Assembly: GCA_023381695.1 (NCBI GenBank)
Contig: JAMCQP010000034.1
Location: forward strand, 72,617-136,616
Direction of reading: 5' to 3'
DNA: 64,000 nucleotides
Origin: Bacillota bacterium
GTDB taxonomy: Bacteria; Bacillota; UBA5301; JAMCQP01
The notes under the pieces are model-generated. The model saw nothing but the letters and a program-made list of their open reading frames with translations, had not been told where the DNA came from and did no database searches. The translations under genes were made by a program, and so were the position numbers. Shown here piece after piece: positions 2,905 through 11,106 of this stretch. Positions within the stretch are counted from its first letter, which is position 1. Every line of letters starts with the position of its first letter.

Positions 2905-4302
2905 TTGCTCACCAGGCGGGAATTCATCAAGCTTTGCCTGAGCGCCACCGCCTCCCTGACGTTATCCCAATCATTGGCTGTTGAAATCGCCAAAGCCTTC
3001 GCCGGGGCGAAGAAGCCGCCGGTAGTCTGGCTGGAAGCCTGCACTTGCACCGGGGACATCCTCTCCTTTGCCAACACGATTAATCCCGACCTGGGGAAAT
3101 TTATCTTCGAGACCATCGACCTCCTCTACAACAACACCTTGATGAAGGCCCAGGGCGCCCAGGCCATCGAAGTGCTGGAGAACGCCCTGGAAAAACGGCG
3201 CGGTGAATACATCCTGGTGGTGGAGGGGACCGTCCCCACCCGTGATAACGGTCGGTACAATATCATCGGGGAGCGCAACGGGCATGCCTGGACGGCACTG
3301 GAGGCCACCCGCAGGCTGAGCGAGGGAGCGCAGGCGGTGATTGCCGCGGGCACCTGCGCGGCTTTTGGGGGGATTTATGCGGCATCTCCGAATCCCTCGG
3401 ACTCCAGGCCGGTTCATAAGGTGGTCAAGCAGCCGGTGATCAACGTGCCGGGTTGCCCCGCTCATCCCGACTGGTTGATGGGGACCATTACCCATCTGCT
3501 GTTTTACGGCCGGCCGGAACTTGATGCCCACCACCGCCCGAAGCTCTTCTTCGGGGAGACCATTCACAACCTTTGCCAGCGCCGTTCCTACTTTGACAAC
3601 AGCATCTTCGCCAAATACCCCGGCGACGGGGGATGCATGTATCAGATCGGGTGCAAGGGGCCGGTTACACATGCGGATTGCCCCAAGCGGCTCTGGAGTG
3701 GGGAGCATGTCAACTGGCCGGTTCAGGCTAACACTCCTTGCATCGGCTGCTCCAGCCCGGAATTTACCGACGGGCTTGGCCCTTTCTTTGTGCCGCTTCC
3801 CGCGACCCCTTTGCCGCGGATTACCACCACCGCCAACCGGGTTGGAGGAGCGGTGGCGGTGGCGACGGCCCTGGCTATCGGCGGGCATCTTGCGGGGACG
3901 GTGCTTACCGGGCGCCTGGGCAAGGGCGCCCAAACCGACGAGGACATTGCCGGAGTGGGGGCCGGTGAAGCAACTGGCGAAGACGCAAGTGGAAAGGAAT
4001 CCAGCGATTCCAGCGGGCAAGAGGCCCGGACCATGGAAGAACAATTCACGAACATTACCTCAAACGTCAAGAAGGCTCTCAAAAAGCGTTCATCCGTATT
4101 AAACTCCGCCGAGATAGAATCTGTTCCGCAAGTACCCAAATATCCCGGTCAAAAGCGCCGCCGGCCCAAATTTATCAGGCCCAGACCACTCCATTACTGG
4201 CCCAAAGATGACGGAACGCCAGATAAAGAGCGACGGGAAGCGAGACAGCCAAACGGGTCTTCCGAGCCCTCGGACAGGGGGGATGACGATGGCTCCAGAT
4301 AA
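2905..4302 (+). CDS. [NiFe] hydrogenase small subunit with Tat signal, C-terminal TM anchor and a long charged tail
   Basis: TTG start after a GGGGGGTG SD. Twin-arginine motif LTRREFIKL. Fe-S ligand motifs GTCAAFGG, PGCPAHPDW, GCKGPVTHADCP and PCIGCSSPEF. A hydrophobic helix (VGGAVAVATALAIGGHLAGTVL) is followed by about 129 charged/disordered residues. Confidence 0.85.
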   Translation: MLTRREFIKLCLSATASLTLSQSLAVEIAKAFAGAKKPPVVWLEACTCTGDILSFANTINPDLGKFIFETIDLLYNNTLMKAQGAQAIEVLENALEKRRGEYILVVEGTVPTRDNGRYNIIGERNGHAWTALEATRRLSEGAQAVIAAGTCAAFGGIYAASPNPSDSRPVHKVVKQPVINVPGCPAHPDWLMGTITHLLFYGRPELDAHHRPKLFFGETIHNLCQRRSYFDNSIFAKYPGDGGCMYQIGCKGPVTHADCPKRLWSGEHVNWPVQANTPCIGCSSPEFTDGLGPFFVPLPATPLPRITTTANRVGGAVAVATALAIGGHLAGTVLTGRLGKGAQTDEDIAGVGAGEATGEDASGKESSDSSGQEARTMEEQFTNITSNVKKALKKRSSVLNSAEIESVPQVPKYPGQKRRRPKFIRPRPLHYWPKDDGTPDKERREARQPNGSSEPSDRGDDDGSR

Positions 4303-8561: not shown

Positions 8562-9134
8562 ATGCCGAAACTTGTCTGGAAACCGTCCACCCTCCTGTAT
8601 CCCGTGCCGGTGCTGATGGTTTCATGCCAGGGAAAGGGCGGAAAACCCAACATTATCACGGTGGCATGGGCAGGGACGGTCTGTTCAGACCCGCCCATGC
8701 TTTCTATTGCCGTGCAACCGCGGCGTTTTTCCTACCAGCTTCTCAAGGAAACGGGCGAATTTGTGGCCAACCTTCCCACGGAGCGTCTGGCCTTTGCGGT
8801 CGATTTTTGCGGCGTGCGCTCCGGCCGGGATGTGGACAAATTTGCGCATCTGAAGCTCACGCCGGAAAAAGCTTCTGTGGTGGGCGTTCCCATGATCAAG
8901 GAGTGCCCGGTAAATATCGAATGCCGGGTGCGGCAGACGCTGCCGCTGGGGTCGCACGAACTCTTTCTGGCGGAAGTGGTGGCGATCAACGTGGACGAGG
9001 GGCTCGTGCAGGAGACCGGGCGGCTGGATCTCGGCAAGGCCCGGCTCCTTGCCTATGTTCATGGCCACTACTACGGGATGGGCAAGCCCCTGGGCCACTT
9101 TGGCTTTTCCGTGAGAAAGCAAGGCAAAAAATAA
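8562..9134 (+). CDS. Flavin reductase-like FMN-binding protein (flavoredoxin family)
   Basis: LYPVPVLMVSC..NIITVAWAGTVCSDPPML..RRFSYQLLKETGEFVANL is typical of the flavin_reduct domain. Confidence 0.8.
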   Translation: MPKLVWKPSTLLYPVPVLMVSCQGKGGKPNIITVAWAGTVCSDPPMLSIAVQPRRFSYQLLKETGEFVANLPTERLAFAVDFCGVRSGRDVDKFAHLKLTPEKASVVGVPMIKECPVNIECRVRQTLPLGSHELFLAEVVAINVDEGLVQETGRLDLGKARLLAYVHGHYYGMGKPLGHFGFSVRKQGKK

Positions 9135-9156
9135 GCTCCGTAAGCACTACTCCGGT

Positions 9157-9555
9157 TTACCGTTTGGCTACAATAGTTATAAGGAAGATAAAAAAGCTGA
9201 TTATAGCTGCCATCATCATGCCAAATGGTAGATCAATGCCCGTAAATATGTGGTATGCGGAATTAACCCGTTGGTCAATGGTGTCCAACTTCTGTCCGAC
9301 GGCGTCAAACCCTCGATCCGTAGCCCGCTGAAAAGTATCGATGCTTTGATTTACAGTGTCGAGCCGCTGGCTCATGATGTCAAAGTTTTTATGTACGCTT
9401 GTAAATCGTTGATCCACATGATCGAATCGCTGCTCCAAAGTTGTAAATCTATTGTACATGAAATCCAATTGTCTGGCGATAAGGCCCTCGAGCTTTTTAC
9501 AATCGCTTTTTTCCTCACCTATTATCGGTTGATTGGTTTTCTCCAGACTATCCAT
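9157..9555 (-). CDS. Tail-anchored coiled-coil/heptad-repeat protein (paralogue A)
   Basis: ATG lies 7 nt after GAAGGAGA. It contains QRFDHVD/QRFTSVH/QRLDTVN/QKLDTID heptads and a single C-terminal TM helix (FGMMMAAIISFFIFLITIVA). Confidence 0.6.
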   Translation of the reverse strand: MDSLEKTNQPIIGEEKSDCKKLEGLIARQLDFMYNRFTTLEQRFDHVDQRFTSVHKNFDIMSQRLDTVNQSIDTFQRATDRGFDAVGQKLDTIDQRVNSAYHIFTGIDLPFGMMMAAIISFFIFLITIVAKR

Positions 9556-9572
9556 ATGCTCATCTCCTTCAA

Positions 9573-9941
9573 TCAATTTTTGAACCACATGCTTACAACC
9601 AGTGCGGTAAAGCTGGCAAGGGTGCCAATCACCAGGGCGATAATCCAGTGGTTATTGCCATCGATCTTTTGGTCGGTGGCGTCAAATCGCTTATTGATCC
9701 CATCAATGCGGTCACTGACCCCATCAATGCGGTCACTGACCCCATCAATGCGTTCATTGACCCCATCAATGCGTTCATTGACTCCATCAATGCGCTTATT
9801 GACATCCTTCAATTCTGTTTTAACCTCGCCGATCTCCTTTTCAAGCTTGCCCAGATACTTTTCCGGCCAATCCACATGATCATCTCCTTCACTGGTTGTT
9901 GCTTCTTCGTGAAAAGCGCAGGCTAGTTCAGATATGACCAT
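9573..9941 (-). CDS. Tail-anchored heptad-repeat protein (paralogue B)
   Basis: ATG lies 5 nt after GGGGGAGGGG. The heptad RIDGV(N/S)(E/D) is repeated five or more times, and there is a C-terminal TM helix (WIIALVIGTLASFTALVVSMW). Confidence 0.6.
   Translation of the reverse strand: MVISELACAFHEEATTSEGDDHVDWPEKYLGKLEKEIGEVKTELKDVNKRIDGVNERIDGVNERIDGVSDRIDGVSDRIDGINKRFDATDQKIDGNNHWIIALVIGTLASFTALVVSMWFKN
9678..9803. repeat. 21-bp in-frame tandem repeat (5 good units plus 1 degenerate)
   Basis: The unit is cccatcaatgcggtcactgac. Copies at 9699-9719 and 9720-9740 are identical. Copies at 9741-9761 and 9762-9782 are identical to each other (cccatcaatgcgttcattgac). A variant lies at 9783-9803 and a degenerate copy at 9678-9698. 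Confidence 0.9.
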
Positions 9942-10224
9942 TTTTTCCCCTCCCCCTGGTCCAAGTATATCACGATACACAAATAGTGTAAAATGCCGGG
10001 CGGGTTACAGAATGGGAGAAAAAGCCGCGAACAGGGGAGATAATCGGAAACAGCCGTGCCTTTTGGCATTCCATAGAAAATTTGTTCGCAAAGATAACAG
10101 GGCATAAAGGGCGGGAAGATCACTATTTGTGTAAATTGCCTTTGCCACGATTTTATGTTATTTTTAAGGCAGGAGTGTTTAGGGTGAGGGTGTCAGGGTT
10201 ATGAGCATTGAAGAGGGTTGAGGG

Positions 10225-11106
10225 GTGATAAGCTTGACCGAGCAAGAGATTGTCGTAACTGCTGGTATGCCGGTGGTTGGGGCAAAATGTGCTTACTGCG
10301 GCAAGGAACTACAAGCTGGAGATCTGGCGGTGGTCTGCCCCCGCTGCAAGAAGCCGCACCACAGCCGGTGCTGGAAGGAGAAGGCCGGGTGCGCCACCCT
10401 TGGTTGCCCGCAGGTGGCCGAGGCGGTTCGGACGGAGAAGACCGACCGTGCAGGAGACAGGCTGGCCCAGGCGGCCCGGGAAGGCGTACGCCGGCGGAGA
10501 ACCTGGCTGACAGTCGCGGCCGTTGTCATCGCCGCCGGGGTGATGATTGCCGGTTTCGGTCTGGGGACCTTCGGAACCCGCCGGGAAGCGGCGGACAAAA
10601 GGGCCGTCATCACGGTCCTGCTCCCGGTCTCCGCCGAATCACCCGATTTAACCCGCATTGCGGAGAAGTTCAACCGCCAGAGCAGGGACAGCCGCGTGGA
10701 GATGAGCATTGTTCCCTTTGGGGCTTATGAGCAAAAGCTGGTGGTGCTCCTGGCGGCTCAGGATGCCCCGGATGTCTTCGCCCTTCCCCCGGATCGGTTT
10801 GAACTGTTTGCTTCCAGGGGGGTCTTCTTGCGGCTTGATTCTCTGGACGGCCCAGATCAGGCGGCGCCTGGCAACCCGCCCGCGGAGTGGCTCAAATACG
10901 CCAGGGTGGGGGACATTCTGTATGGATTTCCTCATCCCCGATTCGGGCAGATTCTTGGCATCGCTGCTGCCAGCAAGCATCCGCAGGCGGCCCGGGAATT
11001 CTTGAAGTTCTACTTTGCCAATCTCCAGCCGGCAGATATGGAGGGCTCTCCGCGAAAAAGCCCGCAGAATCCCCAGAGCTTGCCATTTGGGCCGGGAATT
11101 TTTTAA
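10225..11106 (+). CDS. Prokaryotic RING-like zinc finger - TM helix - truncated solute-binding-protein-like domain fusion
   Basis: N-terminal CAYCGKEL..VVCPRCKKPHHSRCW..CATLGC looks like Prok-RING_1. A TM helix (WLTVAAVVIAAGVMIAGFGLG) follows, then an SBP family-1-like stretch (ITVLLP..IAEKFN..YEQKLVVLLAAQDAPDVF). Confidence 0.65.
   Translation: MISLTEQEIVVTAGMPVVGAKCAYCGKELQAGDLAVVCPRCKKPHHSRCWKEKAGCATLGCPQVAEAVRTEKTDRAGDRLAQAAREGVRRRRTWLTVAAVVIAAGVMIAGFGLGTFGTRREAADKRAVITVLLPVSAESPDLTRIAEKFNRQSRDSRVEMSIVPFGAYEQKLVVLLAAQDAPDVFALPPDRFELFASRGVFLRLDSLDGPDQAAPGNPPAEWLKYARVGDILYGFPHPRFGQILGIAAASKHPQAAREFLKFYFANLQPADMEGSPRKSPQNPQSLPFGPGIF

Follow-up and report, generated by a model that had tools for sequence, protein, structure and literature searches.

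We describe here a two-gene operon, geneA and geneB, on the minus strand of a 64,000-nucleotide stretch of DNA from a Bacillota bacterium of the UBA5301 lineage (assembly GCA_023381695.1, contig JAMCQP010000034.1, positions 72,617 to 136,616; this whole stretch is called the window below, and positions within it are counted from its first letter). As judged from its sequence, geneA is a member of an uncurated family of tail-anchored proteins, to which we give the name DWxEKY, and geneB, on the same grounds, is a strongly diverged tandem paralogue of geneA. The identity and the architecture of the pair can be stated with high confidence; the complete explanation, namely, that the operon belongs to a phage-derived family that would serve in phage exclusion or defence, has, in our judgement, an even chance of being correct.

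An operon for two tail-anchored proteins

A reading of this DNA from the sequence alone (hereinafter, the sequence-only reading) had proposed a tandem minus-strand pair of genes with strong Shine-Dalgarno (SD) sequences, coding for proteins of about 122 and 132 amino acids (aa). This description holds: both open reading frames (ORFs) and both SD sequences are in place, 17 nt separate the geneA stop from the geneB start, and the ratio of nonsynonymous to synonymous substitutions (dN/dS), 0.13-0.42 for geneA and 0.30 for geneB, is that of purifying selection. The dN/dS values and the existence of syntenic orthologues identify both as real genes and rule out the reading that they are not genes at all. 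The proposed common layout, i.e. an acidic N-terminus, heptads and a single C-terminal transmembrane (TM) helix, is likewise borne out. The soluble parts are acidic (D+E against K+R, 25/14 in geneA and 18/14 in geneB), the heptad register x-R-(I/F/L)-D-x-(V/I)-x could be verified in both proteins, and each contains one strongly hydrophobic 19-residue segment (residues 100-118 of geneA and 111-129 of geneB) that is followed by 3-4 residues. In the AlphaFold2 model of geneA (mean predicted local distance difference test score 82), a short helix (residues 2-14) and a linker (15-24) lead into a single unbroken helix that spans residues 25-121. From these features, we infer an N-in topology and an oligomeric coiled coil: the protein would comprise an acidic cytoplasmic N-terminal part, a long alpha-helical coiled-coil stalk and a C-terminal membrane anchor.

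The DWxEKY family

Four features characterise the family: the helix opens with the motif (M/V)DWxEKY..L, the stalk is variable, a tryptophan lies at the membrane interface, and the TM helix is rich in small residues. The consensus reads MDWQEKYLDKLDRDISEMK...RDRDNQRH...[KR]W[VI]IG and then passes into the TM helix (the opening can also be written as MDWQEKYLDKLDRDISEMKxSL); many members have a variable N-terminal extension of 60-110 aa, and in family members RR or RK directly precedes the TM helix and a C-terminal tail of 1-3 residues follows it. A profile search of 1.84 billion representative proteins yielded 750 proteins at E<=1e-3, 69 of them at E<=1e-10. Members come from Moorella, Carboxydothermus, Caldicoprobacter, Thermanaeromonas, Caloramator, Anoxybacter and Melghirimyces, and their source annotations are "hypothetical" and, once, "DUF1515 family".

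The assignment of geneA is best illustrated by a hidden Markov model (HMM) that was trained on prophage-type members only, to the exclusion of the genus of the window, and searched against all 39,941 ORFs of the window's own genome: this model found geneA at E 1e-15 and at full length (model positions 3-100 of 103). Residues D24, W25, Y29, K41 and W99 of geneA are invariant or nearly so in the family, and its anchor is of the family type, with a tryptophan before the C-terminal TM helix and no more than four residues after it. A tblastn search of the same genome revealed four further clear geneA paralogues (a tandem pair on contig C78 and one gene each on C63 and C36) and two weaker paralogues, on C45 and C40, and the paralogues have in common D-W-x-E-K-Y...L....K..L and the tryptophan that opens the TM helix. 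That geneA belongs to a family with several paralogues in its own genome goes beyond the sequence-only reading. The tandem pair on C78 (58991-59751) consists of genes for proteins of 101 aa and about 133 aa, the second of which carries an 11-residue repeat, ARFEQSENKVN. Elsewhere in this genome, a minus-strand gene on C110 (125302-126003) matches the family profile weakly, via the coil and the TM helix only; its product has a signal peptide and an SLH-like N-terminal domain, continues into a long coiled coil, ends in a C-terminal TM helix and might be a tether between the cell wall and the membrane.

The distribution of the family is patchy: of 400 genomes of the phylum, about 7 have strong full-length matches, in addition to the genus of the window. 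A tblastn search of phage sequences in GenBank gave one weak match each in Moorella phage MTATph1 and in a Clostridioides phage, so that sequenced phage isolates, with such few and weak matches, appear hardly to sample the family.

geneB and its relation to geneA

The kinship of the two genes is seen in a 33-nt direct repeat (Table 1), in which the SD and start of geneB (..GAAGGAGATGAGCAT ATG GAT AGT CTG GAG AA) match a segment inside geneA (..GAAGGAGATGATCAT GTG GAT TGG CCG GAA AA). MDSLEK of geneB is aligned to VDWPEK of geneA, and the codons for EGDD in geneA serve as the SD in geneB; the start of geneB occupies the position of an internal GTG of geneA that has an SD of its own, a correspondence that the sequence-only reading did not contain. 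geneB has the TM helix of the family type, without the preceding tryptophan, and shares 38% identity (E 1e-29) with a protein of 168 aa from the syntenic locus L006.

Among the relatives, geneB is unstable: its homologue is the 168-aa protein in L006, a frameshifted remnant made of the start and the TM helix in L001, and a truncated gene in L009. The gene order in L006 is B-A instead of A-B, and the interval between the two genes (3152-3397) holds a fragment of the C-terminal end of a TnpB-like protein (IS200/IS605) and then a GC-rich hairpin. In L009 (1-3300), the locus is present twice and rearranged: a longer geneA-like gene with KFDI[IV]DR repeats lies by the flavin reductase gene and is followed by an Fpg fragment, by the promoter with geneA and truncated geneB, and by full-length Fpg; such an arrangement means either that the locus was truly duplicated or that two strains were merged in a chimeric assembly.

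Variation of the stalk by in-frame repeats

Tandem Repeats Finder (TRF) delineates, within the stalk of geneA, a 21-bp array of 5.5 copies (9688-9803, 90% matching, score 162). The sequence-only reading had reported two pairs of identical 21-bp units at 9699-9782, and the listing of units confirms these coordinates exactly: 9782-9762 equals 9761-9741 (VNERIDG), and 9740-9720 equals 9719-9699 (VSDRIDG). It had also considered recent duplication and variation in length likely, and this expectation could be examined at the syntenic loci of three metagenome-assembled relatives, L001, L006 and L009 (the last labelled Syntrophothermus sp.), where the comparison bore it out: the number of RID heptads in the geneA orthologues is 5 in the window, 4 in L009, 3 in L001 and 2 in L006. 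A further contig, L008, which is 98% identical to the window at the DNA level, contains other units (VNERIDG, VNERIDK, VSDRIDG), its copy number being uncertain because the contig ends inside the array. Since so close a relative has different units, the identical pairs of the window must be very recent. Moreover, a second lineage of paralogues varies the ARFEQSENKVN repeat, with about seven copies in P0038, three in the copy of the window's own genome and two in P0040; it is thus a trait of the family that stalk length varies by way of in-frame repeats. The length of the stalk would change by gain or loss of in-frame 21-bp units, via slippage or unequal recombination, with about 1 nm added per heptad.

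When geneA alone is used as a query, most of what is retrieved are unrelated coils of the RIDGVNE type from other phyla. Such nearly identical heptads (P0006-P0012; L010-L013) are found in Actinomycetota, Saccharibacteria and others, in unrelated architectures that include N-terminal TM anchors and soluble proteins, and seem to reflect convergence on a coiled-coil motif, not homology.

A conserved internal start signal

Within geneA, an SD-like sequence and a GTG codon lie directly upstream of the codons for DW (Table 1), so that a short isoform of 100 aa could start there. We examined this signal in 21 distinct family sequences for which the DNA was available, taking 1,387 internal ATG and GTG codons as controls. 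The codon before DW is ATG or GTG in all 21 sequences, and all nine of the valine codons at this site are GTG, which accounts for 41% of valine codons genome-wide and for 27% in the family genes. An SD-like GGAG motif is located 6-12 nt before this start codon; it pairs with the anti-SD at a mean duplex energy of -9.9 kcal/mol, compared with -3.05 (sd 2.7) in the controls (Mann-Whitney p 1e-13), of which 4% reach -8 kcal/mol. The amino acids encoded over the SD-like motif vary (EG, KE, RE, GG, ES). Furthermore, there are natural short forms that begin exactly at this start, namely, the protein of L019, where only 8 codons are open upstream, and geneB. The long form of geneA is real as well, since its N-terminal extension is conserved among the orthologues and in the paralogue C78 g1 (MV[IV]S...EEA[AT]TSEG). 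The conservation of the internal SD and of ATG or GTG is the reason for proposing long and short isoforms, and it suggests that both may be made.

Genomic contexts of the family

The neighbourhoods of homologues, to which the sequence-only reading had looked for a clue, proved informative. In 8 of 12 independent contexts of core members (a small sample, chosen for long contigs), the family gene adjoins genes of prophage lysogeny, i.e. those for a repressor, ImmA or a recombinase/integrase, and seven contexts contain a full module from repressor/ImmA to recombinase. Six such modules, found in Caldicoprobacter (L014), Carboxydothermus (L015 and L018), Thermanaeromonas (L017), a metagenome contig (L019) and Caloramator (L058), have the same order of co-oriented genes: a cI-type helix-turn-helix (HTH) repressor, ImmA (Peptidase_M78), cargo, a partner gene, the family member, and a tyrosine integrase or serine recombinase. 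L054 combines a partner with M78, a cI/LexA-like repressor and serine recombinases; in L052, the member has a partner, and a tyrosine-integrase-like and a cI-like match lie downstream and upstream, respectively; and in Anoxybacter (L016) a partner-member pair is accompanied by an HTH remnant only. None of the 12 contexts contains a holin or endolysin gene near the family member.

In L017 (5220-6545), the cargo slot contains HicAB and a gene whose 441-aa product combines a SNIPE with a T5orf172 domain; the slot holds an HSDR_N protein in L018 and SNase proteins in L015. Given these genes, the slot between repressor and integrase can be considered a hotspot of accessory and defence functions. 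In Melghirimyces (L059, 1-6570), a 210-aa partner and the family member come directly after a pglX-like gene (MmeI_Mtase/Eco57I) and pglZ, which are components of bacteriophage exclusion (BREX) systems; the junctions overlap or measure 4 nt, and a DUF559/AAA_12 helicase pair lies opposite.

The partner gene lies upstream; it usually overlaps the start of the family member by 8-17 nt and is coupled to it in translation. Partners of about 200 aa fall into at least two unrelated families, and there are partners of other types as well. The first family (27-59% pairwise identity) is represented in L014 (6406-7008), L016 (6406-7017), L018 (6406-7011) and L058 (5415-6008), and the second, unrelated to it, in L015 and L059 (38% identity); the first family gave no match in Pfam, NCBIfam or PADLOC, and partner proteins in general gave none in PADLOC. 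In L019, the partner is another tail-anchored heptad-repeat protein, which makes a tandem pair like that of the window. The locus of the window lacks the typical context, with no partner, repressor, ImmA or integrase, and represents a stand-alone copy.

The locus in the window

The features of the locus are collected in Table 1. The sequence-only reading had described the segment as AT-richer than its flanks and of possible horizontal origin. Indeed, the GC content is 0.43-0.48 over 9200-10200, whereas the flanks have 0.55-0.65 and the genome as a whole 0.583, and the GC content at third codon positions (GC3) is 0.51 in geneA and 0.47 in geneB, against 0.71 genome-wide and 0.63-0.75 in the neighbour genes; because GC3 is low as well, the AT-richness of this islet does not merely reflect amino-acid composition. 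A horizontal origin is compatible with this composition and with the way the family is distributed, which is patchy and phage-borne. The islet is surrounded by ordinary housekeeping genes, namely, those for Fpg, a Zn-ribbon protein and flavin reductase on one side, and for a Prok-RING/SBP protein, a Fer4_16 protein, VanZ, MGMT and TtcA on the other; in agreement with the sequence-only reading, there is no phage, holin or endolysin gene among these neighbours. A search for attachment-site-like direct repeats flanking the islet gave only a 17-nt match of 88% (D4), which we judge to be due to chance, and an Rfam scan of 8900-10400 returned eukaryotic miRNA and snoRNA matches at chance level only.

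Table 1. Coordinates of the features of the geneA-geneB locus
Feature	Position	Strand	Details	Basis
Inverted repeat, distal arm	10121..10133		132 nt between the arms	Repeat search
Promoter, sigma-70 type	9964..9992	minus	TTTACA-17-TATACT, extended -10 TG; 10/12 matches	Promoter scan
Inverted repeat, proximal arm	9976..9988		13 nt, perfect; in the promoter spacer	Repeat search
geneA SD	9956-9947	minus	GGGGGAGGGG; serves the ATG at 9941	Sequence reading
geneA (P0001)	9941->9573	minus	122 aa, long form	ORF reading
geneA layout	9573..9941	minus	22-aa N-terminal extension, VDWPEKY motif, heptad stalk, C-terminal TM helix
Internal start signal	9873..9890	minus	SD-like GAAGGAG (9890-9884) and GTG (9875-9873); putative start of the 100-aa short isoform of geneA
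Heptad units	9657..9803	minus	Seven 21-bp units: VNKRIDG, VNERIDG x2, VSDRIDG x2, INKRFDA, TDQKIDG	TRF, unit listing and repeat search (D1)
geneA W99 and TM helix	9588..9647	minus	Residues 99-118; WFKN alone after the TM helix	Hydrophobicity
33-nt direct repeat	9539..9571 and 9859-9891	minus	82% identical; geneB SD and start, and inside geneA	Repeat search (D2)
geneB SD	9570-9564	minus	GAAGGAG
geneB (P0002)	9555->9157	minus	132 aa, tail-anchored heptad protein of the short-form type	ORF reading
geneB TM helix	9169..9225	minus	Residues 111-129; AKR alone after the TM helix

Both hexamers of the promoter are unchanged in all four genomes compared, including L006, where the geneB homologue comes first; a scan of the locus for terminators found no terminator-like site. 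The arms of the 13-nt inverted repeat read TACACAAATAGTG and CACTATTTGTGTA. The distal arm sits inside a block that is conserved in the relatives (ATTTACACRAATWGTGAT), and its motif, ATTTACAC(A/G)AAT(A/T)GTGAT, is kept in three relatives and is more diverged in L006. In view of this conservation, the inverted repeat is a candidate operator, and its arms could possibly form an operator pair or a DNA-looping site for some regulator.

Comparison with curated families

The sequence-only reading had left the pair functionally unassigned, and no curated family claims it: no query, whether geneA, geneB, a paralogue or a core member, exceeds a cut-off in Pfam, NCBIfam or PHROGs, and the matches are to generic coiled-coil families only. 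A sequence profile search of the Protein Data Bank similarly retrieved generic coiled coils only (spike HR1, apolipoproteins, haemagglutinin). The best NCBIfam match for both genes is the ssr2422 thylakoid family (NF053525; 26.8 and 21 bits, cut-off 38 bits), which resembles them in having a short coil and a C-terminal TM helix, but is cyanobacterial, shows no similarity of context and remains below its cut-off. Among phage families, phrog_9105, of unknown function, is the sole consistent one, and phrog_1193, "hemolysin", matches geneA at 5e-8.

The CCDC90-like/DUF1640 family (PF07798; MCUR1, CCDC90B and prokaryotic homologues) also has a coiled-coil stalk that ends in a C-terminal TM anchor, but differs in the head region and in the N-terminal motif. 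With a cut-off of 33.5 bits, PF07798 gives no match to geneA or geneB, 21.6 and 16.1 bits for paralogues and 22-23 bits for relatives. Many family members carry weak, precomputed PF07798 tags, and a remote relationship to PF07798 is possible.

Possible exclusion or defence, and the alternatives

When considering what proteins of this kind might do, the position of their genes is informative. Genes located between repressor and integrase are expressed in lysogens and, in well-studied phages, code for exclusion or abortive-infection functions, e.g. RexAB, Sie2009 and Ltp. Lambda RexA/RexB, lactococcal Sie2009 and Ltp of Streptococcus thermophilus share with the DWxEKY family the slot, the expression in the lysogen that goes with it, and the nature of small membrane proteins, and RexAB, in addition, likewise combines a membrane protein with a soluble partner. 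The sequences show no similarity, and the DWxEKY topology, in contrast to theirs, is that of a tail-anchored coiled coil. Because genes in this slot have such functions in the phages that have been studied, and because the adjacency to BREX genes agrees with this, the family may be involved in phage exclusion or defence, an assignment by analogy that we regard as tentative and short of an even chance. Elsewhere in thermophilic Bacillota, the family gene is typically the last cargo before the integrase or recombinase, or lies in a BREX-type island; its product would act at the cytoplasmic membrane in exclusion or defence in the manner of superinfection-exclusion (Sie) or abortive-infection (Abi) proteins; and the copies in the genus of the window would be stand-alone, partner-less descendants that were acquired horizontally.

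Several observations weigh against this explanation or against parts of it. Apart from the small size of the sample of contexts, no prophage marker is found within about 8 kb of the family gene in Moorella (L050/L051) or in L053. The contigs of the own genome that carry the paralogues contain no gene for an integrase, a serine recombinase or M78, and this genome contains no homologue of the partner genes, for which reason the pair of the window may have a different, domesticated role. PADLOC-DB 2.0 yields only generic coiled-coil matches (JetC, LmuB, ZorA) at E>=8e-5, none of them specific. The core HMM of the family misses geneB (E 4.7), and its homologue in L006 is marginal at 6.6e-4. As to the dual start, the sequences compared are related, and a conserved upstream E-G dipeptide may itself yield part of the SD-like signal.

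The alternative that survives best, although we consider it rather unlikely, is that geneA and its relatives are a domesticated housekeeping scaffold or spacer of the cell envelope, of the DUF1640/CCDC90-like type, with paralogues that expanded in the genus and are unrelated to phage here. The 5-7 paralogues in the own genome, all at loci that are not prophages, would be expected in this case, as would a locus that is syntenic in at least four relatives and under purifying selection and that has its own conserved promoter and candidate operator; the sub-threshold PF07798 scores of paralogues and relatives and the precomputed tags point in the same direction. However, PF07798 stays below its cut-off in every scan, GC3 is atypical, 38 of 40 related genomes lack the family, and the decay of geneB in L001, its truncation in L009, and the swapped order with the TnpB fragment in L006 are the behaviour of accessory genes.

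Quite improbable, in our opinion, is a lysis accessory or "haemolysin" of the XhlA type that would permeabilise the membrane together with a holin in phage or PBSX-like lysis, an analogy that the sequence-only reading had brought up and of which only the architecture stands. XhlA of the PBSX lysis cassette of Bacillus subtilis (PF10779) is similarly small, with an N-terminal coiled coil and one C-terminal TM helix (in the DWxEKY proteins, coil and TM helix fit into about 90-130 aa), is of phage origin, and shows weak HMM similarity across the coil-TM junction: the PF10779 scores are 24.3 bits for geneA, 12.7 for geneB, 27 (C78 g1) and 15.7 for paralogues and at most 20 for relatives (20 in P0050), and the phrog_1193 match can be read in the same sense. 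Yet all these scores are below the cut-off of 34.7 bits, and the Pfam model stops short of the DWxEKY part of geneA. Lysis and vesicle release depend on XhlA, a membrane protein, in concert with the holin XhlB and the endolysin XlyA (PMC5589764). DWxEKY genes, by contrast, are not found beside holin and endolysin genes, either in the window or in the 12 contexts; they stand alone, lie in defence islands such as the BREX-type one or, in prophages, occupy the lysogeny end in the orientation of the repressor rather than belonging to late or lysis cassettes. The variable stalk and the internal start signal are further features by which the family differs from XhlA. Judged by the genomic contexts, phage exclusion is more likely than cell lysis.

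Finally, a length-variable contingency surface protein, with an extracytoplasmic coil that would serve antigenic variation or the masking of phage receptors, is most improbable: in-frame repeat copy number does differ between close relatives, and the positive-inside rule is ambiguous for geneA, where the C-tail of four residues contains a K and the TM helix is preceded by few basic residues, but there is no signal peptide, the N-terminal part of about 100 aa is strongly acidic, RR or RK before the TM helix and the tail of 1-3 residues favour the N-in tail-anchored topology, and the likeness to Borrelia Bdr repeat proteins that the sequence-only reading had drawn found no support in any search, with no Bdr family among the matches listed (the best 25 of 40 in Pfam for geneA; NCBIfam) and none in searches of 5.8 billion and 1.8 billion proteins.

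Implications

Returning to phage exclusion or defence, one can envisage a more specific scenario, which is speculative and, on the whole, unlikely. DWxEKY would be the membrane component of an undescribed modular anti-phage system that resides in lysogeny operons and defence islands of thermophilic Bacillota; the exchangeable upstream partners would function as sensors, the ratio of isoforms would gate the activity in a manner resembling holin and antiholin, and the pairs in the genus of the window would be minimal or domesticated versions, with stalks tuned by 21-bp slippage.

To our knowledge, the phage biology of thermophilic anaerobes is almost unexplored. If the assignment to exclusion or defence is true, the family would be a compact new class of membrane proteins borne by prophages and defence islands in these organisms. 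With about 750 representative clusters, it is definable yet uncurated and is a candidate addition for Pfam or NCBIfam, and its combination of in-frame-repeat stalk variation, exchangeable partners and a conserved dual-start signal is unusual. As for the organism itself, two of its "hypothetical" genes can now be seen as an accessory islet of probable phage origin.

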